64,000 nt of DNA, from the sequence record OK283619.1. The stretch is one strand, 5' to 3'. The notes beneath the pieces were generated by a model. It worked only from the letters and a program-made list of their open reading frames with translations, had not been told where the DNA came from and did not search any database. The first letter of the stretch is position 1. Each line of letters opens with the position of its first letter. The translations under genes and the position numbers were made by a program. Origin of the DNA: Escherichia phage LPEK22. Positions 9,685 through 64,000 of the stretch are shown here, in pieces.

Positions 9685-10548
9685 ATGACAACTACATTTA
9701 ATAAAAACGTGAGATTGAATTTGGCTTTTGGTAATGCGGCTGGAGATATTACAGCCCCTGACTTCGGTAAAATTCGCAATCAGGCCAAACTGGTTCTGGA
9801 AGAGACCCGCGAATTACTGGAAGCGGCTTATTTCGATCATGACATCAAACTTGAGCTGGTGGCAACTCCAAAAGAAGACACCGATGATGTTGATATGGAT
9901 AAAATCCTGAAAGCCATCATGGACGCTCAGGGTGATATCACAACTGTTAATGACGGCGTGGCCCATATCGCTGGTTTTAATGGTGATGAATGTTTACAAC
10001 GCGTGTTTGCCTCTAACATGAGCAAATTTATTCGCTCAGAAGATGAAGTCGGTCCGGCACTGGAATATTATTATTCACGCGGTTTCCCAGATGGCCAGTT
10101 ACGCGTTGAAGGTGAATTCCCTCAGGCATGCATCAAAGTGAATGAGACTGTGATGTGGAATGGCAAAGAATATCCGAAAGGAAAATTCCTGAAAAACATG
10201 GCTGTGTTCAAAGAGCCTGATTTCTCTGATATGCTGACGAATACCCCTTCCCGTCAGATCAATGACATCGTTGCCAGCATGGCAATTGAAGAAGGTCAGG
10301 TATTTGTTGATGATATGAACGGCGTGGCGTTGGTATCTCCAAAAACGTTGGAAGTAATTCTTTCTATGGCAGTTGAAAAATCTTCTCGACCCGTAGATGT
10401 TAACGGCCAAATTGAAAGTTATGTGCCAGCGTATATCATTAACGATACCAATATGCCTAAGCTGTGTGGGGTGTGGGGTGCTAATGTTCGTGTATACGCG
10501 TGCGCACCTGTTCAAAACACTGTGACACACCTCTCTCGCTTCGATTAA
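9685..10548 (+). CDS. hypothetical protein (288 aa)
   Basis: Occupies the position where T4 has DNA polymerase; start moved to ATG after regA stop; no motif recognised. Confidence 0.5.
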   Translation: MTTTFNKNVRLNLAFGNAAGDITAPDFGKIRNQAKLVLEETRELLEAAYFDHDIKLELVATPKEDTDDVDMDKILKAIMDAQGDITTVNDGVAHIAGFNGDECLQRVFASNMSKFIRSEDEVGPALEYYYSRGFPDGQLRVEGEFPQACIKVNETVMWNGKEYPKGKFLKNMAVFKEPDFSDMLTNTPSRQINDIVASMAIEEGQVFVDDMNGVALVSPKTLEVILSMAVEKSSRPVDVNGQIESYVPAYIINDTNMPKLCGVWGANVRVYACAPVQNTVTHLSRFD

Positions 10549-10617: not shown

Positions 10618-11823
10618 ATGAAAGATAAACCACATGACATCCCATATTGCGGTGTCCGTGAAACCAAAATCAAATCAGCCCATCCTATGTTAAGTTCATT
10701 CCACCGCCAGCTGGCATATGAATGGATGAGGGATCGTTATGCGATACATGTCAAGAAGGACGTGCAATGCCTTCCAGCGCCATGGACGGATAATCCGGTA
10801 TTACGCCAAGTCAAGTTTTGTAACGTGCGGAGAGAGCACGATAGGCAGTCTCGAAATTTGATCAATAATATCATCCTCGATCAGGATCTCACGCTATCTG
10901 ACAAAATGTTCAACTGTGTATTGTTCCGCATGTACAACATGTGGGAACCTATACAGGCTTTGGGTGGTCCATGGACGATCGAAGAATTCGGAAACATAAA
11001 TCTTGAATGGTGTCGAGATGTTCTTCAGGAATTCGAATCTAAAGGTGGCAAAGTTTTCACCAATGCGTTTAATACAGGCGGTCTGAAACAATGCCTGGCT
11101 TTCCCTGAACTAGTTGTCAACCACAAGGAGCAACGCTTTGGCGGCATGAAGGTAAAAGTCCATCGGGTTGGCGGTGTTATAGATGAAATGGATTACAAGG
11201 TTGCCAAGAAGCTGGCCGAAGATAATCCTGGTGAATACAAAATAGAAGGCTGGGAACCATACATGCCGATGCGAGTCATCCGCTCTTTGAAGGCATTCGT
11301 CAACAAACACCCTCATTACTTTGATCGCCTCAGGGAATTTAGCCGTCCCGACTCTGTTTACCAGGCGATGTATGACGACATTGAGGGGCTTGGACCATTC
11401 TTGGCATACCAGATTTGGGTTGATTTTACATACATCGATGAATATCCATTCAGTGAAAACCACTTCACTATCGCTGGTCCAGGTTGCCGTGCTGGTATCG
11501 ATCTGTTATTTTTGGACAAGGACGGCATGACGCATGAAGAATGCATATTCTGGGTTCGTGATCATCAAGATCAATTGTTCGCTCAGTACGGGTATAAACG
11601 TAATGAATTTTGGTCGGCAGAAGAACCGGAAGACCGTTGCATGAATGTTATGCAGTTGGAGAACATGTTCTGTGAACTTCAGAAATATACCCGCTGCGTT
11701 GAGGCGGTGATGCGCGGGGAGAAACCTCGAGGAAAGGTGGGGTATAATGGTGGTGAAGTTAATCAGCCATTACAGAAGACTCCCGTTCGTTCTATTAATC
11801 TGTTAGAGAAGATGAAAAAATGA
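10618..11823 (+). CDS. hypothetical protein (401 aa)
   Basis: Strong RBS AGAGAGGA, preceded by terminator 10573-10600; Trp/Tyr-rich; no motif recognised. Confidence 0.55.
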   Translation: MKDKPHDIPYCGVRETKIKSAHPMLSSFHRQLAYEWMRDRYAIHVKKDVQCLPAPWTDNPVLRQVKFCNVRREHDRQSRNLINNIILDQDLTLSDKMFNCVLFRMYNMWEPIQALGGPWTIEEFGNINLEWCRDVLQEFESKGGKVFTNAFNTGGLKQCLAFPELVVNHKEQRFGGMKVKVHRVGGVIDEMDYKVAKKLAEDNPGEYKIEGWEPYMPMRVIRSLKAFVNKHPHYFDRLREFSRPDSVYQAMYDDIEGLGPFLAYQIWVDFTYIDEYPFSENHFTIAGPGCRAGIDLLFLDKDGMTHEECIFWVRDHQDQLFAQYGYKRNEFWSAEEPEDRCMNVMQLENMFCELQKYTRCVEAVMRGEKPRGKVGYNGGEVNQPLQKTPVRSINLLEKMKK

Positions 11824-14810: not shown

Positions 14811-15047
14811 ATGAAACAAATTACTAAGACAGTACAAATCACCCAATATCAAACGGATGACGGCAGAGTGTTCGATACTCTTGGTCAGGCCGAACATTAT
14901 GAGAAGATGAAGTCCGGTATTCGCAAGGTATGCCCTTCTTGTGATGGCAAAGGTCGCGACTCTCCGTCTGGCGACGGGCGTGATATGACGACTTGTCATT
15001 ATTGTGGTGGTAAAGGCTGGGTAGAAAAGAAAGAGATATGGGGTTAA
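14811..15047 (+). CDS. DnaJ-type zinc-finger protein (78 aa)
   Basis: Two CxxCxGxG repeats (CPSCDGKG, CHYCGGKG); RBS GGAG. Confidence 0.5.
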   Translation: MKQITKTVQITQYQTDDGRVFDTLGQAEHYEKMKSGIRKVCPSCDGKGRDSPSGDGRDMTTCHYCGGKGWVEKKEIWG

Positions 15048-15457
15048 TGAAACCTGTCATCTGTGATTACTGCGGCCTTCCTGCCAAATACGTCGGGGGT
15101 GATGTTGTATACCCCCACCGCCCTGAACTCCGCAATCTGAAGTTCTGGGTGTGCACTCCATGTGACGCCCGAGTCGGTTGCCATAAACATGGTGATGGAA
15201 AGACCCCTATGGGAAGGATGGCGAATGCCGCTCTCCGTGCTGCTAAGCAGGAAGCTCATAGGTCGTTTGACCCTATCTGGAAAAGTGGGCAGAGGAGCAG
15301 GAGTGATGCTTACAGCTGGCTGGCTCATAATCTGGGGATCAAGAAGCGCGATTGCCATATCGGCTTGTTCGATATCGACACGTGCCGTAAAGTAATATCT
15401 GTGTGTGACCAACTAGAGGTGTCAAACGATGTCAAAGGAAATACAAGAATCTTTTGA
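15047..15457 (+). CDS. zinc-finger protein (136 aa)
   Basis: CDYCG...CTPCDARVGCHKH cysteine cluster; TAATG overlap with upstream gene. Confidence 0.5.
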   Translation: MKPVICDYCGLPAKYVGGDVVYPHRPELRNLKFWVCTPCDARVGCHKHGDGKTPMGRMANAALRAAKQEAHRSFDPIWKSGQRSRSDAYSWLAHNLGIKKRDCHIGLFDIDTCRKVISVCDQLEVSNDVKGNTRIF

Positions 15458-15680
15458 AAAGTTATCTCAGGTAATGACCGATTGCAACCGCCGAAATTAT
15501 TGCGATGAAGCGTATACGCAATTGAAAACCGTCGTCGAATCTGAGTTGAATAACCTTTCAACTTTTAAAGATATTCAGACCGAAGTGCTATATCTGTCGG
15601 ATGAAGATTTAAGGCGTTGTCCCCGCAAGATTTACCAATTACTGGATCGTTTGGTGAAAGTGGGGGTGGATAATGGGTAA
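15429..15680 (+). CDS. hypothetical protein (83 aa)
   Basis: ORF with RBS GAGGTG. Confidence 0.4.
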   Translation: MSKEIQESFEKLSQVMTDCNRRNYCDEAYTQLKTVVESELNNLSTFKDIQTEVLYLSDEDLRRCPRKIYQLLDRLVKVGVDNG

Positions 15681-16398
15681 TCGTGAAGGGATTAAACTCA
15701 CTCCAGAACTTCTAAAGTCCCACATCGCCGAAGTGATTTATGAAGACCGTGAAGTCGGTGGTCATCGTGTCATTACATGCCACTTCAAGATGGACAATGG
15801 CTTCGTCGTCTGGGGGAAGAATAGTTCAACTTCTATCGACCCAGCCAACTTTGATGAAGAGTTGGGTAAGAAACTGGCCTATGAAAAGACCTTCTCCCAG
15901 CTGTGGGAACTGGAAGCATATCGCGCGATGGTAGAAAAGCAGATCATCGATGTGTCCGTCAAAGATGCTAAGATCAACATTGATGAATATGTGTCAGAAA
16001 GGGAAGCGATACATGAGATGGGTGGTTCTGAATTCCTTAAGGGTAAAGGACAATCTGTCGTGTTTCGTCATCCCAAGGATCCAAGTCGGGGATTTCGAGT
16101 TGAATTTGTTCGCACCGATAACGAACGTTATAACGAACGACGTAATGGTGAAGCAAGATCTTTGGTGGAAGCGTATCTTCGCTCGTTCATGACTTCTGAA
16201 GAACTAAATTCTGAACTTGTTTTGCGTTTGGCGAAAACGTGTAATGCTGCTTCAGGGGATTATCCGTGGTGTGACCTGTCAGAAGACAAACGCCAAGCAG
16301 CTTGTGATCGTGTTAAGAAATTCTTGTTAGATCCGAAAGCCGAACCTGATGATTCCGTGGGGGCGCTGTATAGAGCCATCGTGGTGTCATACTTGTGA
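15673..16398 (+). CDS. hypothetical protein (241 aa)
   Basis: ORF overlapping upstream stop; N-terminal CHFKMDNGFVVWGK region recalls a phage Gp49-like domain (weak). Confidence 0.5.
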   Translation: MGNREGIKLTPELLKSHIAEVIYEDREVGGHRVITCHFKMDNGFVVWGKNSSTSIDPANFDEELGKKLAYEKTFSQLWELEAYRAMVEKQIIDVSVKDAKINIDEYVSEREAIHEMGGSEFLKGKGQSVVFRHPKDPSRGFRVEFVRTDNERYNERRNGEARSLVEAYLRSFMTSEELNSELVLRLAKTCNAASGDYPWCDLSEDKRQAACDRVKKFLLDPKAEPDDSVGALYRAIVVSYL

Positions 16399-16497
16399 TT
16401 TTCAAAAGTCTTTCAAAATCAATAACGTCCGGCAAATTGCTGGGCGTTTCAATTAACAAGCCAAGGTATAATGGTCTAATTGTAAAGCGAGGAAATC

Positions 16498-16857
16498 ATG
16501 TCCGTAAAAATGAAAGGTGTTGAATTCAACGCCTACTATAACGATGACGAATATTGGGAAAAGGGTGCTTGGCACGATGATCATTGCGTCAAAGTTAATG
16601 GAGAATACCGTGAAGAACTCGATGAAAATATTCCAGACGATGCTGATGTCGTAATTGAGTCAGGCACAGTTTATATCCCTGTAGCTGGAGAAAGTGGTGC
16701 TGAAGAGAAAGATATCCAGTTGGTCACTCATTTCAAGAATTGGCGTAAGAAAAAGAACTTTTCTTTCATTGTTGTGATTGTAAAGAAAGATAAGGCGTCG
16801 GAAGTCCGTGAAGCCCTGAAGAATATTTCTGGTGTCATGGAAGTGAAAGGGAATTGA
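16498..16857 (+). CDS. hypothetical acidic protein (119 aa)
   Basis: ORF with RBS GAGGAA. Confidence 0.45.
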   Translation: MSVKMKGVEFNAYYNDDEYWEKGAWHDDHCVKVNGEYREELDENIPDDADVVIESGTVYIPVAGESGAEEKDIQLVTHFKNWRKKKNFSFIVVIVKKDKASEVREALKNISGVMEVKGN

Positions 16858-16858
16858 T

Positions 16859-17029
16859 ATGACCAAACCATTTTTGCGTTCAGGAGTTGACTCTCTTGAC
16901 TCACAGTTTAAACCCAGCGAAGTTTTAATCCAACAGATTGAAACTAATCGCGAATTCATAGAACACATGCTGGCGAAGCCGGAAGGTGAAGCCGTCCATA
17001 CCACTAAAGAAGGTAATAACGATGATTGA
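16859..17029 (+). CDS. small ORF (56 aa), below ORF-track size cutoff
   Basis: ATG 2 nt after upstream stop with RBS AAAGGGAA; stop overlaps the vWA gene start. Confidence 0.3.
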   Translation: MTKPFLRSGVDSLDSQFKPSEVLIQQIETNREFIEHMLAKPEGEAVHTTKEGNNDD

Positions 17030-24509: not shown

Positions 24510-24715
24510 TCGGGTTAATCCGTTATCTGTTCATATTCGTAATTTCAACATTCATTTTATTTTTCTTTTTCAAATACTTGAAAGAGACTAAAATCTACCG
24601 AAGTAAACGTTGGCGTAAACGGGTGAGGGTAACTTTCCTGCTGCTGATTTCTTCGGTTACAATAACCGCACTCACATTGGGTGCATATATCTACATTTTT
24701 GAAGGGGTACATTGA
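24506..24715 (+). CDS. small membrane protein, two predicted TM helices (69 aa)
   Basis: ATGA overlap with upstream gene; hydrophobic LIRYLFIFVISTFILFFFF and FLLLISSVTITALTLGAYIYIF. Confidence 0.45.
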   Translation: MIGLIRYLFIFVISTFILFFFFKYLKETKIYRSKRWRKRVRVTFLLLISSVTITALTLGAYIYIFEGVH

Positions 24716-25506
24716 TGTTCAAGAAATTGGTGTTTGGTGCAATTATGGTTCTGGCTGCAAGTCTACTTTCTGGTTGTGGTGGCGTTATCGATGAAGGTAA
24801 TGTCGGCGTTCGCACCCAATGGGGTGAAGTAGACATGAACCCTGTAACAGCGGGGATCTACACCAGCTTTGTTTCAAGCGTGGATGTTTACACGACCAAA
24901 GAAGCCGTTGTGAGTCTGACGAAAATGACGCCAAAGGCCAAAGACAACCTGACCTTGGAAGATCTGGATGTGGACGTTTATTACACACCGAACGTCGCGA
25001 AGGTTCCTTGGTTCCATACCAAATTTGCAGGTCAGAGCGCTGAACTCGGTGACGGCACGATAGCGGTGGGATTCAACCTGGTTAAAACCGCCGCAGCATC
25101 CTCAACGATGGACGCCGTTTCCTCTTTGGATTCTATGACAATTCACACCCAACGGGCTGAGTTAGAAAAGATGATCAAGGAACGCACCCAGCAGCAATTG
25201 GAAACTGCTGCGCCTGGCATGTTCACAATCACACGTGTGTTGGTGAAAAAGGCGCTGACAGATCCTTCGATTGAGCAATCTATCCGTGATAATGTCATGG
25301 CCGACAAACGTTTGGATACAGCAAGAAAGAACGTTGAAATTCGAGACCAAGAAGCCAGGGCGAATCAGAAACTGACGACATCTCTGACACCTGAATATTT
25401 ACAACACGAATATAACATGGTGTTGCAATCTTGCGCCAACAGCGGGAAATGTACTCTGATTGTTGATGGTTCAGGCTCAAGTAAAATGCTAAACGTCGGC
25501 AAATAA
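24712..25506 (+). CDS. SPFH/band-7 (prohibitin-like) domain lipoprotein
   Basis: Lipoprotein signal with lipobox LLSGC; GNVGVRTQWGEV...VDVYYTP resembles SPFH domain. Confidence 0.6.
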   Translation: MMFKKLVFGAIMVLAASLLSGCGGVIDEGNVGVRTQWGEVDMNPVTAGIYTSFVSSVDVYTTKEAVVSLTKMTPKAKDNLTLEDLDVDVYYTPNVAKVPWFHTKFAGQSAELGDGTIAVGFNLVKTAAASSTMDAVSSLDSMTIHTQRAELEKMIKERTQQQLETAAPGMFTITRVLVKKALTDPSIEQSIRDNVMADKRLDTARKNVEIRDQEARANQKLTTSLTPEYLQHEYNMVLQSCANSGKCTLIVDGSGSSKMLNVGK

Positions 25507-38600: not shown

Positions 38601-39170
38601 ATGAAACCGTTTATCGAATATTTTAAAGAACAAGCTCAACAACCGCAAACTCATGGCGGCATACAAGGCAAAAGTGTAACCATCACCAAACAGGCCGACG
38701 GAACCCAATGGTGTACTGGTGCCACCGTGACCCAGATCACTCCAGATAATCAGGCCGACATCTATAATCTGGAATTGACTAACGGCAACACCACCAAAGT
38801 AAAACTCACACCGGACCAGGTTCATGCGGTTTCTGTGGGCAAAGATGTTGTTGCCGTTCATGACGGTTTTGAGTTCTTCTTTGGGAAAGATGCCAGCAAA
38901 GGTCAGGTCACAGAATCCTATGCCCAAGAATTGGCGAACATGGATAAGATGATCGGTAAAGCGCTGGGCGTTGGCAAATCTCGTAAAAGCGGTCGTACAG
39001 AGTTTGAATATTCCGGTATTCCTGGTATTGGAAAACCTGTCGCAATCGACTTCGGCGGAGAAGACGATCCATATGTAATTGTCACAGTCGCTGGCAAACA
39101 GCATGACATCAGTAAGGGGAAAACCCTAGCTGCGGACATTGCCAAATATATTGGCGTTAAACCTGTCTAA
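38601..39170 (+). CDS. hypothetical protein (189 aa)
   Basis: ORF with AGGAG RBS. Confidence 0.5.
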   Translation: MKPFIEYFKEQAQQPQTHGGIQGKSVTITKQADGTQWCTGATVTQITPDNQADIYNLELTNGNTTKVKLTPDQVHAVSVGKDVVAVHDGFEFFFGKDASKGQVTESYAQELANMDKMIGKALGVGKSRKSGRTEFEYSGIPGIGKPVAIDFGGEDDPYVIVTVAGKQHDISKGKTLAADIAKYIGVKPV

Positions 39171-39179
39171 GGAGGTTGT

Positions 39180-39422
39180 ATGAAAGGATTCCAGGACTTC
39201 CTCTTGAAGGAAGCAAAGGTTGACCATCGCCGCCTTGGGCAGCAGGGCATGTACGACATCACGGATGTTGGTCGTCCAACCAAAGGCGAGCTGATCGATT
39301 ACTACAATCGCAACGGTGATAAGCGGCAGGGGAAAGTGAAGTCCGTGAACGCGCAAGACATCATGACCCTGACAGACACCGACACGGGTGAAACCGTCAA
39401 GATGACTCTGGTCAAGCCGTGA
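39180..39422 (+). CDS. hypothetical protein (80 aa)
   Basis: ORF with GGAGG RBS; followed by strong terminator. Confidence 0.45.
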   Translation: MKGFQDFLLKEAKVDHRRLGQQGMYDITDVGRPTKGELIDYYNRNGDKRQGKVKSVNAQDIMTLTDTDTGETVKMTLVKP

Positions 39423-39426
39423 TTAC

Positions 39427-42471: not shown

Positions 42472-42482
42472 GGGGGGGGGGG
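42472..42482. repeat. homopolymeric G tract (11 G)
   Basis: GGGGGGGGGGG immediately after the stop of gene 41976-42464, followed by AAACTCCCCTCC. Confidence 0.8.
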
Positions 42483-42523
42483 AAACTCCCCTCCTTATTC
42501 AGATTTTTGGTAGGAGATTCAAA

Positions 42524-42646
42524 ATGGACGAAGAAGTTCTGTATTGCCCGCATTGTGGTTCGGAAATGGAATTTGAAGACGGTGATTGCCCGCATTGCGG
42601 TGAGCACATGGACTCCTGGAAAGATAGTGAAGGAGACGACGAATGA
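42524..42646 (+). CDS. zinc-ribbon mini-protein (40 aa), below ORF-track cutoff
   Basis: Translated manually: MDEEVLYCPHCGSEMEFEDGDCPHCGEHMDSWKDSEGDDE; RBS TAGGAG. Confidence 0.4.
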   Translation: MDEEVLYCPHCGSEMEFEDGDCPHCGEHMDSWKDSEGDDE

Positions 42647-42840
42647 CCGCATACGAAATGTGCATCAACAACATCGCATTCACTTTGTTCAACCGCAACC
42701 CGAACATGGTGAACTCAAGCCCCCCGAGCGCATTCGATTTCTCCCTCGGGCTGGCAGTGGGGTTCTGTAAGGACGCTCAGGAAGTGGTGATGGACATCGC
42801 CGCTGCCGTCGCTAAACTCCAGAGGGAGGAAGCAGCATGA
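42643..42840 (+). CDS. hypothetical small protein (65 aa)
   Basis: ATGA overlap with upstream mini-ORF. Confidence 0.3.
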   Translation: MTAYEMCINNIAFTLFNRNPNMVNSSPPSAFDFSLGLAVGFCKDAQEVVMDIAAAVAKLQREEAA

Positions 42841-58749: not shown

Positions 58750-59496
58750 ATGTCACAGCTACACCGTATTTTTGGTATTGAATTCAGTTCTAATTGCGTT
58801 CGTTATGATCGCACTCATAAAGATTCGGGTGGTAAAACCGGATATGAACTCGGTAGCCAGTTGGGATATTCCAGGGAACAATTGTTCAATCAATACAGGC
58901 TGAATGAAACGGATCTTCTTAGGGTTATGGGCATTGAACTTGATTCCGAAGCCAGCTTGGATCTGGGCGACGAAATTCGTTTTGGTAAACCAGAAGCATT
59001 GGAATTCATTGAAGATTTCGTTTCTGGTTATACCCAAGCCGCTACGAACCGCCGCGCTGCTAATGATGCAGTGGGTAAATTCTACTTTGCGGCGAAATAT
59101 CTTGCCGACAAACGTATACAGATGGAAGCCGAATTCAGTAAAGAAAATCTGAAAGCAGTTTTCGGCGAAGAAGGCGATTTCCGTTTAATGCCAGAATCTG
59201 GCACTGAATCAGCTCGTGATTTCTTTGAAAAACCATTTGTGGTCAAAGGTTGTAAAATTCTTACCGACGAAGACCACGCTTTCGCAATCCATACTGAAGT
59301 CGTTTACAATGAAGAGAATTGCCTTGTTATTTCCAGATTGTTCAACAGTCTGTCATATACAGCGTATTCTTTGATTGAACGTTGTATGGAAGAAGAGCAT
59401 CGTCAGGTGGTGGTGAACAAAATTCGCTTACACGTTGAGCAGAATTTTAACGGGTTTGGTTGTGAATCCGGCGAAATCCCTAATTTCTATCTGTAG
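58750..59496 (+). CDS. hypothetical protein (248 aa)
   Basis: ORF with GAGG RBS. Confidence 0.5.
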   Translation: MSQLHRIFGIEFSSNCVRYDRTHKDSGGKTGYELGSQLGYSREQLFNQYRLNETDLLRVMGIELDSEASLDLGDEIRFGKPEALEFIEDFVSGYTQAATNRRAANDAVGKFYFAAKYLADKRIQMEAEFSKENLKAVFGEEGDFRLMPESGTESARDFFEKPFVVKGCKILTDEDHAFAIHTEVVYNEENCLVISRLFNSLSYTAYSLIERCMEEEHRQVVVNKIRLHVEQNFNGFGCESGEIPNFYL

Positions 59497-59513
59497 CACA
59501 AGCAGGGGGCTGT

Positions 59514-59801
59514 ATGAAGAAATATGTTCGCCTGAACACGGTACTGGAATCTGTAATCGAATATTTCATAATGCAGCACCTCAGAGCAGAAAATGATCAT
59601 GTGAGCGATGCTTTGACTTATGACCACCGGATAGTGGTTCATTCCGTCGAAATAGTGGACGACGAATTGTTGATTGCCAACATAGAACATGCTCTCTGGG
59701 ACGAAGTTTTGGACCAGTATGTTCAACCCAAATTCACACAAATCGAGTTGTCTGCCATGTGGCCACCTGAAACAGTTTTCAATATTGATATACAAAGTTA
59801 A
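59514..59801 (+). CDS. hypothetical protein (95 aa)
   Basis: ORF with GGGG RBS. Confidence 0.4.
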   Translation: MKKYVRLNTVLESVIEYFIMQHLRAENDHVSDALTYDHRIVVHSVEIVDDELLIANIEHALWDEVLDQYVQPKFTQIELSAMWPPETVFNIDIQS

Positions 59802-59878
59802 TATTCACGCCAGTCCGCGCTGATACAGCGTTCCGTTGTCTAACACAGAAGTGTTAACCAACTTTTCAATAAAAAGTG

Positions 59879-59907
59879 GTTTACATCTTCTAAAAAGGCA
59901 GTATATT
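59879..59907 (+). promoter_or_regulatory. early promoter: -35 GTTTAC, 17 bp, -10 TATATT
   Basis: Preceded by TTCAATAAAAAGTGG; 67 nt upstream of ATG 59975. Confidence 0.5.
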
Positions 59908-59974
59908 AATGTTCCAGACGCACAGTTGAACATTAGACTGCCAAAGAAGGTTACTACACAAAAGGGTTTTTATT

Positions 59975-60934
59975 ATGTCCTATATTCTTCATATCGAGTC
60001 CGGCCTGAAATTTGAAATTGATGGTAAAACCGCTGCTGATCTTCAAGCAGAAATCAAAGGTGCAGACCTTATCATCGGCAACGTCACGTTACGCCGTATG
60101 ATGGAAGGCGTCCTCCAGTCAGCCAATGGCTTTGAACTCATCGAAGGTCTGAGCCAGGAAGAGAAAGAAGAGACTCTCGAAGCTCTTGACCGCGCTGAAG
60201 CCGAAAAAGTTAAACCGACCGAAGATGCGGGGGTTAAACAGGGCGACGGTGAATCAAATCCGGTGATTGACGCCGAAGAAACGGTTGGGCAACCTGTCGG
60301 TGATCAAAATTCCCAGACCGTCGAAGACGGTTCTCTTGAAGTCAACAAAGACGGTTCCATTTCCCTGGTAGTTGAAGGCGAAGAAGTTCTTGACGAAGAA
60401 GCGCAAGCCCGTGCTGAAGAAGTTCGCCGTCGTATGCTGGGCACAACCGTTGCTGAAGCAATCGCCGACGTTGAAAATCCGAAGGATGATCAGGCTTTAG
60501 CGAACGCGAAGGCGGTTCTGGCCAAGAAATCTTCTGAAATGCGCCCTGCATCTTCTACCGAAGAACGCAAGCGTCGTCATAACAAGCGTGAAGAAATGGT
60601 TGAAGCGGCTCGCGCATCCAATTATGGTCCTATCCTGGCTGCGGTTGAATCAGGGGTTGTGCCTGGGGTTTATTTGAGCTATGTGAATCCGGATATGCGC
60701 TGGTTCCAGTTCCCTGTTACCGAACTGGCAGATGAAGCCAATCCACACGCCCGCACCAATACTTATGTTGATCTGGCGCCAATCGTTTCCGGCGGCTGGG
60801 GGTTCAGTCTGTATGTGAATGGTAAATCATTCACCAAACGCCAGAAAATCAAAGAAACCGATGCCGAATCTCTGGTGAAAGCAATCAATGAATGGTTGCC
60901 TCAGGCGTTGGCCGAAGCGAAAGCTGCTGCGTAA
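59975..60934 (+). CDS. hypothetical acidic protein (319 aa)
   Basis: Downstream of early promoter 59879-59907; acidic N-terminal half. Confidence 0.5.
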   Translation: MSYILHIESGLKFEIDGKTAADLQAEIKGADLIIGNVTLRRMMEGVLQSANGFELIEGLSQEEKEETLEALDRAEAEKVKPTEDAGVKQGDGESNPVIDAEETVGQPVGDQNSQTVEDGSLEVNKDGSISLVVEGEEVLDEEAQARAEEVRRRMLGTTVAEAIADVENPKDDQALANAKAVLAKKSSEMRPASSTEERKRRHNKREEMVEAARASNYGPILAAVESGVVPGVYLSYVNPDMRWFQFPVTELADEANPHARTNTYVDLAPIVSGGWGFSLYVNGKSFTKRQKIKETDAESLVKAINEWLPQALAEAKAAA

Positions 60935-61006
60935 TTTAATTCAGAAGCGTTCAATAGATAAAGGGGCTGCTATAATAGCAGCTCCTTTTGTTTGTTGGAG
61001 CATGTC

Positions 61007-61669
61007 ATGTCTTATTCGCTCAAAGGGCTGTTGAAGCGCCCTGTGCATTTGTTTGTCAAACCACCTGCTGTAGAAGGGGAATATTCGGCACGAGGAGAGT
61101 TGTATTACATTAAAGGCTCCAATGGTAGTGGTAAGTCTACTGTGCCTTCTTATTTGGCGGAGAATGATCCTCAGGCGTATGTCGTAACCCATAACAGTAA
61201 GATCATGCTCACGGTTTGTCCATCTTACAATATTGTCTGTGTCGGTAAATATGACAAGTCTAAGTCCAAAGGGGTTGATTCTCTGAAGGATACTGAGCAG
61301 ATGTTGTTCGCGTTGTCTATTGCTGACCAACCAGAATACCTGAAATATGATGTGATTTTCGAAGGCATCATTCCGTCTACATTATTGAGTTCTTGGATTC
61401 CCCGCCTGACACGCCCACCACGTGAATTGGTCGTCCTCTTTATGGATACCCCTCTTGAAACCTGTATTGCCCGTGTTAAATCGCGTAACGGTGGCGCAGA
61501 CTTCAATGAAAGTCTGGTGGTCGAGAAGTGGGAGAGAGTTCATGATCACCGTCAACGGCATAAAGGCTTGTTCCCTACCGTTCCCGCAGGTATGATGAAG
61601 TCCGATGGCCTGACTGTAGAGCAGGCTGTTTTTGCGTTTCTCAATCGTGATTTTGGGAGTATTTATTGA
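61007..61669 (+). CDS. P-loop nucleotide/nucleoside kinase-like protein
   Basis: Walker A GSNGSGKST about 45 aa from N-terminus, kinase-like size; track start TTG, ATG with GGAG RBS chosen. Confidence 0.55.
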   Translation: MSYSLKGLLKRPVHLFVKPPAVEGEYSARGELYYIKGSNGSGKSTVPSYLAENDPQAYVVTHNSKIMLTVCPSYNIVCVGKYDKSKSKGVDSLKDTEQMLFALSIADQPEYLKYDVIFEGIIPSTLLSSWIPRLTRPPRELVVLFMDTPLETCIARVKSRNGGADFNESLVVEKWERVHDHRQRHKGLFPTVPAGMMKSDGLTVEQAVFAFLNRDFGSIY

Positions 61670-62715
61670 TGGAAATCAAAGCAATTAACAACAACGACAT
61701 GCTGAAACAGGCTGTCTTGGCTATCCGTGAGCACGGGATTGAATCTGACCCTGGTAACGCGGAGATCAACACAGACGGCACTCGTTTTATTGATGGCGTG
61801 ACGATCACCGTCTCTGACATCCGCGACCGTTGGCTGTCTGTTGAAGGACGCAACTCATCGGCTATTGCTGCCATCGGCGAGACCTTCTGGGTTCTGTCTG
61901 GGCGCGATGATGTGCGCTTCTTGTCCCGTGTCCTCCCTCGCGCCGCCAACTTCTCTGATAATGGCCATACATGGCGAGCCGCTTATGGTCCGCGTCTGTA
62001 CGCCCATGGCCAGCTGGATAGCGTTATCAACCGCCTACGCAAGAACCCAAATACTCGTCAAGCGTACCTCACCATCTATGATCCGGCTCTAGATTCGGAT
62101 GCTGGTCTGGCGAAGTTCAGCGAGAGCGGCGAAGCAAAGACTAAGGACATGGTGTGTAACCTGGCTCTGTTGTTCGCCATCGTTGAAGGTCGTCTGAACC
62201 TGACGGTCATCAACCGCTCACAGGATGTTCTGTGGGGGATGAGTTCAATCAACTTCATTGAGTTCTCTATTCTTCAGGAAGTGATTGCTCAGGTGTTAGA
62301 TGTTGATGTCGGTCAGTACAAGCTATTCTCTAACAATCTTCATTACTACAACAATGAAGTCAGCCAGAAGCAGCTTGGCAAGATCACCAAAGACACAAAA
62401 GTCACTGGTGGTTTCATCAACTCCATGATCTACTTCACGAACGTGACCAACCAGAACCATATCCGCAATCTGTTCACTGGTGTGCTTCATCACTGTGATA
62501 TCGGCAGCCCGTGGGAAACTGTTGTCGCTCACCTGAAGGAGTACGGCGCGGATCGCGGCCTGATCGTGCAGATGGCGTACTGCCTGTACTGCAAACTGAA
62601 CGACAAGCTCATCAACATGAACCTGATTCAGGATCATGGTTTGAACATCGCGCTCGCTCATTCTCCGATTGACCGCAAGATCGTTGATCCCAAGTTCTTG
62701 GAAGGTGCAGTATGA
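61669..62715 (+). CDS. thymidylate synthase-family enzyme (TS or dUMP hydroxymethylase candidate)
   Basis: TS blocks ETFWVLSGRDD, NPNTRQAYLTIYDP, catalytic Cys in DMVCNLALLF, RSQDVLWGMSSINF with Asn at base-recognition position, LHYYNNE. Confidence 0.75.
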   Translation: MEIKAINNNDMLKQAVLAIREHGIESDPGNAEINTDGTRFIDGVTITVSDIRDRWLSVEGRNSSAIAAIGETFWVLSGRDDVRFLSRVLPRAANFSDNGHTWRAAYGPRLYAHGQLDSVINRLRKNPNTRQAYLTIYDPALDSDAGLAKFSESGEAKTKDMVCNLALLFAIVEGRLNLTVINRSQDVLWGMSSINFIEFSILQEVIAQVLDVDVGQYKLFSNNLHYYNNEVSQKQLGKITKDTKVTGGFINSMIYFTNVTNQNHIRNLFTGVLHHCDIGSPWETVVAHLKEYGADRGLIVQMAYCLYCKLNDKLINMNLIQDHGLNIALAHSPIDRKIVDPKFLEGAV

Positions 62716-63281
62716 TGTATCCGAACCTTGAATTCTTTACGGGGCGCAAGCGCTCCGGCAAGGACTTCTGTTTGGAGTCCCTCATCAGCTATCACCATTT
62801 ACAGGGTGATATGGACATCCAGCGCTTATCTTTCTCGGACGAGTTGCGTCGGGTGGCTCATTACATCTATCCTTGGTTGCCAGAGGAAGTAGAGGACGAT
62901 ATCAAGGACTTGCCATATGTTCACCCAGATAACCCCAAGGGATTAACCCCAAGGCAGATCTGGCTTCATCTCGGCAGCGATACGGGGCTTCGTTATGTCC
63001 AACCGGATCTGTTTTTGTCTTTCTTTAAGCGTTACCAACTCCCATTAGTTGAACAGAATCCTAACATTCATTATATTGTGAGTGATCTACGGACGCCTCA
63101 AGAATATGAATGGGCGCTGAGCACTAAATGTCCCATCACCCGCATTTCAAAGGCAGATCGCGGCGGTATCATAGAGGACGACATAGAGGCTTTCATTGAT
63201 GAGATGAAAGTTGATTATGAATTTGTTAACCCATTTGAAGGTTGGCAACCATTCGTCAAATTTTATAGGGAACGGAAATGA
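62712..63281 (+). CDS. 1: deoxynucleoside monophosphate kinase (gp1-like)
   Basis: N-terminal FFTGRKRSGKDF matches T4 gp1 P-loop LSGVKRSGKDT; 189 aa. Confidence 0.7.
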   Translation: MMYPNLEFFTGRKRSGKDFCLESLISYHHLQGDMDIQRLSFSDELRRVAHYIYPWLPEEVEDDIKDLPYVHPDNPKGLTPRQIWLHLGSDTGLRYVQPDLFLSFFKRYQLPLVEQNPNIHYIVSDLRTPQEYEWALSTKCPITRISKADRGGIIEDDIEAFIDEMKVDYEFVNPFEGWQPFVKFYRERK

Positions 63282-63829
63282 TCACAGCAGAGCATATCAA
63301 AAGTCTGCTCGAACTTCAAAAGGCCACCAACGTGGCCTATTTTGGGGAAGAGTGGCGTAAACATTGGACTCATGTGGCGGTGGTGAACTCCATCTATCGT
63401 GAGTGGGCAGAGTTTCTTGACGAAACAACCCAGGACTGGAAAATCTATGGCGGTGGGATACAATATGACCGAGAAGCAGCTGTCTACGAATTGGTGGACG
63501 TGGTACATTTTATGTTGTCTTCCATTTTATCTGGATTTGGTTCTGCTTTCCCAGTTGAAATGCAGATTGACCTTTTCTTCAAGGACGGACGAGTGATAGA
63601 CAAATCGGCCAATCTGGAATCGGTCACAGAATGTTTTACGTCATTTATGGTTCAACCAGATGTTATCCGTTTTGTGCGGTTTTTATCAAAGGCTTGTGGT
63701 TATTTGGATCTGGACACCGAAACCTATATGCTGGCCCACAAGCGCAAGAACGATCGCAATCGTCTACGTGCTGCTGGCGGTGCGAACTATGACAAGTCTG
63801 CCGAAACCCCTCTGACTCTGGAGTTCTAA
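63278..63829 (+). CDS. 56: dCTPase/dUTPase-like all-alpha NTP pyrophosphatase (gp56-like)
   Basis: ELVDVVHFMLSSIL matches T4 gp56 ELVDIFHFVLNMF; size 183 aa. Confidence 0.65.
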   Translation: MITAEHIKSLLELQKATNVAYFGEEWRKHWTHVAVVNSIYREWAEFLDETTQDWKIYGGGIQYDREAAVYELVDVVHFMLSSILSGFGSAFPVEMQIDLFFKDGRVIDKSANLESVTECFTSFMVQPDVIRFVRFLSKACGYLDLDTETYMLAHKRKNDRNRLRAAGGANYDKSAETPLTLEF

Positions 63830-64000
63830 TGTTTACAGTTGTCGTATCATATTATGCGGAACATGCCCCGTACATGGCAGAGAACTTCGCTGAGTTTATT
63901 AAACCAGGCGGTCATGTCGTTATTGCGACCAATTTCAAGAAAGAGCCAGATGGTGCGGCTACTGTAACACAACATATTACAACCAAAGAGCCGGAAACAC
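63829..64000 (+). CDS. hypothetical protein, 5-prime fragment truncated by window end
   Basis: ATG overlapping upstream stop; ORF runs off the window. Confidence 0.3.
   Translation, partial: MFTVVVSYYAEHAPYMAENFAEFIKPGGHVVIATNFKKEPDGAATVTQHITTKEPET

Follow-up and report, generated by a model that had tools for sequence, protein, structure and literature searches.

A stretch of 64,000 nucleotides from Escherichia phage LPEK22 (sequence record OK283619.1), referred to here as the window, closes with four consecutive genes on the plus strand that very probably comprise the pre-replicative nucleotide genes and the first post-replicative enzyme of the thymidine hypermodification pathway known from Salmonella phage ViI, of the Ackermannviridae. 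The first gene (61007..61669, 220 residues) encodes a 5-hydroxymethyl-deoxyuridine (5-hmdU) DNA kinase (5-HMUDK), the second (61669..62715, 348 residues) a predicted dUMP hydroxymethylase of the thymidylate-synthase (TS) superfamily, the third (62712..63281, 189 residues) a deoxynucleoside monophosphate (dNMP) kinase and the fourth (63278..63829, 183 residues) an all-alpha nucleoside triphosphate (NTP) pyrophosphatase of the dimeric-dUTPase/MazG type. A fifth gene on the same strand, with a phage ACT-like domain, begins at the last base of the fourth and is cut by the end of the window, so that 57 codons of its 176-residue reading frame are present (63829..64000).

The earlier note on this DNA, made from the letters and their open reading frames (ORFs), had described four consecutive overlapping genes, and both the ORF list and the junction sequences agree with it for 61007-63829. 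The kinase gene and the TS homolog share 1 nt (TGATG), the TS homolog and the dNMP kinase 4 nt (ATGA), the dNMP kinase and the pyrophosphatase again 4 nt (ATGA), and the pyrophosphatase and the fifth gene 1 nt (TAATG); judged from these junctions, we regard all five genes as translationally coupled. The kinase starts with the ATG at 61007, which is preceded by GGAG, and the in-frame TTG at 60992 is an unlikely start because it lies inside the T-tract of a terminator-like hairpin. The TS homolog has 348 residues counted from its ATG and would have 349 if translation started at the TTG at 61666. The hairpin itself (60960..60998, plus strand; a 13-bp stem with the loop TAA, then TGTTTGTTGG) was found by a pattern scan as a match to the consensus only. 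It lies 3' of an upstream gene of 319 residues and 9 nt ahead of the kinase start, no other terminator-like hairpin of the region is as strong, and as a putative terminator it would mark the upstream boundary of the module. T4-like phages of this kind rely on their own middle and late promoters. A sigma-70 scan of 59400-64000, whose scope does not extend to such promoters, returned 12 sites against 6 expected, of which none is at a convincing place in the gap from the terminator to the kinase start.

The region 60900-64000 is identical (100%) to that of Salmonella phages S117, kage, BPS5/6 and ps4 and 99.8% identical to that of SFP10, and about 266 Ackermannviridae records match it. On these matches the window is assigned to Kuttervirus (Ackermannviridae), SFP10 species group. 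Profile searches place all four module proteins in their families far beyond chance.

The enzymes of the module

The product of the first gene matches the Pfam family PF18748 at E 2.4e-113, with a score of 376.8 bits where the cut-off is 27 and with all 196 profile positions covered (1-196), and carries the Walker A motif G37-SNGSGK43-ST, the same as in ViI gp67 (YP_004327432). With gp67 it shares 95% identity over 219 residues and a syntenic position. As gp67 moves the gamma-phosphate of ATP onto 5-hmdU in DNA in vitro (PMC8989533), we identify the first gene, by sequence, as encoding the orthologous 5-hmdU DNA kinase. A sequence search of the PDB with this protein gave no match at E up to 0.1, so that no solved 5-HMUDK can be recognised by sequence in the copy searched.

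The second protein matches PF00303 (59.3 bits, cut-off 24.3; E 4e-16) and phrog_3676 (E 7.5e-185). We aligned its active site with E. coli ThyA (sequence verified against PDB 1aob), T4 gp42 and two phage homologs, from Ab18 (Pseudomonas) and CP-51 (Bacillus). Cys163, in the motif DMVCNLALLF, falls on ThyA Cys146, and Glu71, Arg183, Ser184, Asp186, His225 and Tyr227 are, like the cysteine, invariant between the window protein, ThyA and gp42 (in ThyA the Cys nucleophile, Glu58, Arg166, Ser167, Asp169, His207 and Tyr209). Asn195 occupies the position of ThyA Asn177 and of T4 gp42 Asp179 and is conserved in at least 90% of a 67-sequence family alignment. The earlier note had read both the catalytic cysteine and the asparagine at the specificity site from the letters, and the alignment with ThyA and gp42 bears it out on both. 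It had also described a C-terminal extension relative to ThyA, which is real (the protein continues for 121 residues past the H225-x-Y227 motif, ThyA for 55, and this part does not resemble the ThyA C-terminus), and an insertion of about 20 residues, which it overestimated: the alignment gives 10-13 residues relative to MilA, Ab18, CP-51 and ThyA, placed directly ahead of Cys163.

The AlphaFold2 model of this protein, computed with the 67-sequence alignment, has a pLDDT of 94.2 and a pTM of 0.93, and in it the C-terminal extension (about residues 240-348) forms an ordered helical subdomain. A Foldseek search of the PDB ranks first MilA, the CMP 5-hydroxymethylase of mildiomycin biosynthesis (PDB 5jnh, 5b6d), with TM scores of 0.74/0.81 over 342 columns, that is, essentially full length and including the C-terminal region; ThyA structures reach a TM score of about 0.55 over a core of about 265 residues only. 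In ThyA a C-terminal segment closes over the folate, and in the model the helical subdomain stands in its place. MilA is also the best sequence match among solved structures (E 6e-17), yet the two proteins are only 21-22% identical: MilA has a cytosine ribonucleotide as its substrate and Asp at the position of Asn195, and the window protein has an extra insertion, of 11 residues in this comparison, ahead of the catalytic Cys.

The nearest relatives of the second protein beyond the Ackermannviridae belong to phages with 5-hydroxymethyluracil (hmU) or hypermodified thymidine in their DNA (Ab18, M6-like phages, CP-51), with others in Vibrio phages. Its identity is 77% to the ViI protein named 'thyA', 33% to the homolog of the SPO1-like phage CP-51 and 35% (E 4e-46) to the dUMP hydroxymethylase of Acinetobacter phage SH-Ab 15599, a member of the Ackermannviridae that makes diaminopropanyl-thymidine (dapT); the 15599 enzyme, like the window protein, belongs to phrog_3676. 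Its co-expression in E. coli supported the formation of dapT (PMC13458397). Because of the MilA-like fold including its C-terminal extension, Asn195, the catalytic residues and relatives among hydroxymethylases and hmU phages, the assignment of the second gene as a dUMP hydroxymethylase is well supported, and the protein itself would be expected to act on dUMP rather than dCMP, as the earlier note had argued from the asparagine.

The third protein carries the P-loop G11-RKRSGK17-D, in which GRKRSGKD stands against GVKRSGKD in T4 gp1, and it is 91% identical to ViI Vi01_059c. The fourth matches PF08761 (31.6 bits, cut-off 22.9; E 2.5e-7), has the acidic motifs E42/E45/D48/E49 and E71/D74 and is 69% identical to ViI Vi01_058c. 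The earlier note had called the two proteins gp1-like and gp56-like. The names hold at the level of profile families: phrog_139 takes in the dNMP kinase (E 7.6e-49) and T4 gp1 (E 1.8e-65), and phrog_173 the pyrophosphatase (E 6.9e-38) and T4 gp56 (E 5.8e-39). They hold at that level only, as pairwise similarity in BLASTP is confined to the P-loop and to the ELVDxxHF motif, the kinase aligning with gp1 over 21 residues only (E 0.003). A phmmer search of the PDB with the dNMP kinase at E up to 1 gave insignificant matches only and did not recover the gp1 structure, and the PDB sequence search with the pyrophosphatase gave a weak match only, to the Campylobacter dimeric dUTPase 1w2y (E 0.012).

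As the T4 proteins are similar at motif level only, the assignment of the third and fourth genes rests on the profile families and on a fusion protein of phage 15599, the 391-residue gp18. In gp18 the N-terminal half shares 32% identity with the dNMP kinase (E 1e-19), and the C-terminal half 29% with the pyrophosphatase (E 3e-9). gp18 hydrolyses dTTP and dUTP and spares 5hmdUTP (PMC13458397). The fusion of the two domains ties the third and fourth genes functionally and makes it more likely that the pyrophosphatase is a dTTPase/dUTPase than a dCTPase of the gp56 type, which qualifies the comparison with gp56 in the earlier note; the dNMP kinase presumably turns 5-hmdUMP into 5-hmdUDP.

A side observation concerns gp18 itself (MH517022, 11151-12326). 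Its published description is that of a dTTPase/dUTPase bearing a 'C-terminal dUTPase-like domain', and phosphorylation of 5hmdUMP was ascribed to host kinases (PMC13458397). Its N-terminal domain is homologous to gp1-type dNMP kinases (phrog_139, E 1.4e-22), and for this reason phage 15599 may supply this phosphorylation itself.

The pathway and the readings that compete with it

The pathway counts four further ViI genes, and one of them has its ortholog in the window, about 50 kb from the module. This gp160 ortholog (10618..11823, plus strand; aGPT-Pplase clade 1, Pfam name 'HMUDK_hel') matches PF18723 at E 1.7e-83 and is 78% identical to ViI gp160 (Vi01_130c), one of the five ViI proteins with which 5-(2-aminoethoxy)methyl-deoxyuridine (5-NeOmdU) was reconstituted in lysates (PMC5889632 Table 3). 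The other three, gp247 (a serine:DNA transferase, aGPT-Pplase2/PF18724), gp226 (a pyridoxal phosphate (PLP) decarboxylase) and gp243 (a second kinase), lie outside the window. In phage S117, whose module is identical, their orthologs share 92%, 94% and 85% identity with the ViI proteins, respectively, with matches to the Pfam families ADDT, PALP and HMUD2. The earlier note had advised a search for transferases, PLP enzymes and radical S-adenosylmethionine (SAM) enzymes; the S117 genome supplies the transferase and the PLP enzyme, whereas a radical-SAM enzyme is not to be expected, since ViI has none (PMC5889632 Table 3).

In ViI the module corresponds to Vi01_061c to Vi01_058c, with the same order and the same overlaps, and the neighbourhood is the same as well: the 319-residue gene precedes the module, and the ACT-like gene, UvsX and the gp41 helicase follow it. 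ViI also shares the partner genes gp160, gp226, gp243 and gp247, the last three as seen in S117. The differences lie in the hydroxymethylase and the pyrophosphatase, where divergence is concentrated in the C-terminal ~110 residues of the former (39-60% identity) and in the core of the latter (30-53%), whereas all catalytic residues are the same.

The order of the DNA-level steps has been proven for the ViI proteins: 5-hmdU in DNA is converted to 5-PmdU by the kinase, to O-serinyl-thymidine by gp247 and to 5-NeOmdU by gp226 (PMC5889632, PMC8989533). 5-NeOmdU is a base that resists restriction. It replaces about 40% of thymidine in Vi01 (ViI) and CBA120 (PMC11721090); for the Taipeivirus phiHS2 the figure is about 16% (bioRxiv 10.64898/2026.05.19.726188). 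The activities of kinase, transferase and decarboxylase and the presence of the base in these three phages are thus proven for orthologs and relatives of the LPEK22 proteins.

We propose that the module works as follows. With Cys163 and methylene-tetrahydrofolate the TS-family enzyme would convert dUMP to 5-hydroxymethyl-dUMP, Asn195 picking uracil and the exocyclic methylene being resolved by water and not by hydride. The gp1-family dNMP kinase would carry 5-hmdUMP to the diphosphate and the host NDP kinase the diphosphate to 5-hmdUTP, while the all-alpha pyrophosphatase most likely degrades dTTP and dUTP and not 5-hmdUTP, so that the phage polymerase would insert 5-hmdU where T would otherwise stand. 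Once the DNA has been replicated, the P-loop kinase would act on the polymer itself and phosphorylate its hydroxymethyl groups, with 5-PmdU as the product, a gp247-type serine:DNA transferase encoded elsewhere would form O-serinyl-thymidine, and a gp226-type PLP decarboxylase would yield 5-NeOmdU at a fraction of the T positions, the remaining hmU positions ending as thymine. LPEK22 DNA is expected to contain the same bases.

Several points weigh against this proposal. The enzyme evidence comes from orthologs in other phages and none of it from LPEK22 proteins, and the literature consulted yielded no biochemical assay of a ViI-type TS homolog itself, the substrate used by Lee et al. being SP8 5-hmdU DNA (PMC5889632, PMC8989533). 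The specificity assigned to the pyrophosphatase comes from a homolog with just 29% identity, and two of the four residues proposed to select the base in gp18 are kept in it (Gln and Asn, here Q14 and N18), whereas the Tyr and the Trp are not. Other MazG-like pyrophosphatases of the genome (window 9685-10548; compare ViI Vi01_011) could instead be the dTTPase. Finally, no deposited record is identical to the window over its full length, the best being ps4 and BSP101 with 99.0% across the first 25 kb; for this reason the gp226, gp243 and gp247 genes are established for close relatives of LPEK22 and not for this exact genome.

The second gene could alternatively encode an ordinary thymidylate synthase that forms dTMP, with generic nucleotide-salvage enzymes as its neighbours. 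The PF00303 match, the complete set of ThyA catalytic residues and an Asn at the position that specifies uracil agree with such an enzyme, most database records call the protein 'thymidylate synthase', and the T in the virion DNA of such phages is still mostly ordinary. Yet every NCBIfam ThyA equivalog model scores far under its cut-off with this protein (56 against 327 bits, for example), the folate-closing segment is replaced and the fold is closest to MilA. The gene is, moreover, coupled to the 95% ortholog of a proven kinase whose sole known substrate is hmU in DNA, the relatives carry hmU-derived 5-NeOmdU, and the records of ViI, kage and S117, in the parts examined, annotate no further hydroxymethylase and no TET/JBP candidate. 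We therefore hold a plain thymidylate synthase to be very unlikely. Lower still is the probability, close to nil in our estimate, of a 5-hydroxymethylcytosine (hmC) pathway as in T4, in which a dCMP hydroxymethylase would work with a gp1 kinase and a gp56 dCTPase. Such a pathway would fit the resemblance of the gene set to T4 gp42, gp1 and gp56, the PHROG families that the third and fourth proteins share with gp1 and gp56, and the closest solved structure, as MilA acts on cytosine nucleotides. The earlier note had named Asp at the specificity site together with glucosyltransferases as the sign of an hmC pathway; the residue is Asn195, whereas both gp42 and MilA have Asp, and the collinear records (kage region) carry no glucosyltransferase annotation. 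The neighbouring kinase, furthermore, belongs to 5-hmdU DNA, ViI encodes a dCMP deaminase as a source of dUMP, and in ViI, CBA120 and phiHS2 thymidine is the modified base whereas dC is normal.

A third explanation takes the public annotation of the first gene at its word, as a small terminase subunit with no tie to nucleotide modification. The family phrog_800, labelled 'terminase small subunit' in PHROG, does match the kinase (E 4.5e-69), and the name is used in RefSeq (NC_015296, NC_016073, NC_049427 and NC_049503, among others) and in pharokka-style annotations. However, in the 511-position profile of phrog_800 the kinase covers positions 4-220 and the gp160 ortholog positions 376-472; as this split fits a family built on kinase/aGPT-Pplase fusions of the SP10 gp186 type, we read the label as a misannotation. 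The actual small terminase of ViI is Vi01_162c, which adjoins the large terminase away from the kinase, and the full-length PF18748 match, the Walker A motif and the proven activity of gp67 on 5-hmdU DNA (PMC8989533) leave the terminase explanation next to no credit. Public annotation is poor throughout: in most of about 270 records the kinase goes by 'terminase small subunit' or else by 'hypothetical protein', and the name given to the hydroxymethylase is 'thymidylate synthase'.

We thus return to thymidine hypermodification of the ViI type. The earlier note had favoured thymidine hypermodification, with an extra kinase acting on hmU in DNA, over hmC of the T4 type, and the PF18748 kinase at 95% identity to gp67, Asn195 and the MilA-like fold uphold that choice; a reading of the raw sequence alone had recovered a real and unusual pathway. 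Iyer et al. reportedly predicted the ViI-type pathway in 2013. It was demonstrated by Lee et al. in 2018 (PMC5889632) and 2021 (PMC8989533) and is regarded as conserved across Ackermannviridae. The system is therefore already known, and as SFP10 was named among the 5-HMUDK-encoding ViI-like phages in the original paper (PMC5889632 Table 1), its presence in LPEK22 carries little weight as a discovery.

Likeness to other systems varies with the part of the pathway compared. Phage 15599 (PMC13458397) shares the synteny of hydroxymethylase, kinase/pyrophosphatase, UvsX and helicase, and differs in that the dNMP-kinase-like and pyrophosphatase domains are joined in gp18, whereas the window has two overlapping genes, and in that its 5-HMUDK is not adjacent to the hydroxymethylase. 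Its final base is diaminopropanyl-thymidine and not the aminoethoxymethyl-deoxyuridine of the ViI type, because the donor of Pplase2 differs. The same pre-replicative logic, in which a dUMP hydroxymethylase, a dNMP kinase and a dTTPase/dUTPase swap dTTP for 5-hmdUTP, is found in the Bacillus hmU phages (SPO1, SP8 and CP-51 type) and in phiW-14, SP10, M6 and PaMx11, the latter four having, like the window, 5-HMUDK and aGPT-Pplase as well. The homologs of CP-51 and Ab18 share the Asn at the specificity site and the C-terminal extension. Identities to these phages are 28-35%, however, the SPO1 type stops at hmU, and the other four phages attach putrescine, glutamate or glycine and not serine. T4 uses the same three enzyme families (gp42, gp1 and the dCTPase/dUTPase gp56) to exclude a canonical pyrimidine and to supply a hydroxymethylated one, whereas its gp42, with 246 residues and Asp179, acts on dCMP and is without the long C-terminal helical subdomain, and T4 has no DNA-level kinase, its later modification being glucosylation.

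Mosaic alleles within the module

The module is not uniformly close to ViI. Its hydroxymethylase shares 94.8% identity with the enzyme of Dickeya phage RC-2014 (Limestonevirus), a member of another subfamily, but 77% with that of ViI, which is of the same genus. Over about 0.9 kb (61.9-62.8 kb; window 61900-62830) nucleotide identity is 83-99% to RC-2014 and 53-79% to ViI; at either end of the stretch that was compared, identity to ViI rises to 99-100%. The C-terminal ~110 residues of the hydroxymethylase, low in identity to ViI as given above, fall in the same range of 39-60% against Klebsiella phage FKP10, and the pyrophosphatase core (residues 60-150; window 63420-63720) is about 80% identical to that of FKP10, a Taipeivirus, and 27-53% to those of ViI and Dickeya. 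Hydroxymethylase identities in the phage database have a bimodal distribution, with 101 records at 90% or above and 168 at 60-80%.

From these identities, the C-terminal subdomain of the hydroxymethylase and the core of the pyrophosphatase appear to be allelic cassettes shared with other genera. That such cassettes were exchanged independently across Ackermannviridae genera of different hosts, perhaps through diversifying selection or co-adaptation within a complex, is a tentative idea that we consider unlikely as it stands; neutral mosaicism is the alternative. If selection acts, it could help the phage to evade host defences that detect or block nucleotide-pool enzymes, or it could preserve co-adapted contacts in a multi-enzyme complex that channels deoxynucleoside triphosphates, as hinted by the kinase-pyrophosphatase fusion of 15599 and by the coupled ACT-like protein. 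Mosaic exchange is the sole element described here with some potential novelty.

Neighbouring genes and other features of the window

The fifth gene was judged from its full-length ortholog in kage, which matches PF24021 (E 3.3e-88) and phrog_3839. The gene is kept at this position in ViI and in Dickeya and Klebsiella Ackermannviridae and is absent from phage 15599. As ACT domains usually bind small-molecule effectors, its product may regulate nucleotide metabolism. On the other side of the module, the gene of 319 residues (59975-60934) belongs to phrog_3905, has no Pfam match and has an acidic low-complexity centre; its product is 99% identical to the ViI homolog and 60-73% identical to those of Dickeya and Klebsiella phages.

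The MazG-like pyrophosphatase at 9685-10548 (phrog_2144), which by its family could be an alternative dTTPase candidate, lies directly upstream of the gp160 ortholog, and the arrangement is the same in ViI (Vi01_131c, 130c). Across the whole window no Rfam family reached its gathering threshold and ARAGORN found no tRNA gene; the tRNA cluster of these phages is placed elsewhere, at about 137-139 kb in S117.

Over its full length the window is a mosaic with respect to any one record. A fixed-offset collinearity with kage was rejected, as the window carries replaced segments relative to it: 113-750, 14823-17006, 24510-25306, 38915-39424 and 42476-42836 do not align with kage, and the surrounding blocks are 98-99% identical. 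These five segments are, by this comparison, probable sites of accessory-gene replacement. The segment at 14.8-17.0 kb carries an ORF with a DUF3268 zinc finger (15038-15457) and another of the N4-gp49/Sf6-gp66 family (15673-16398). SLOG domains bind nucleotides or ligands and are found in several conflict systems; one related to YspA/cpYpsA (PF10686, E 1e-8) is encoded by the ORF at 917-1384, which the kage annotation names 'GTP-binding protein'.

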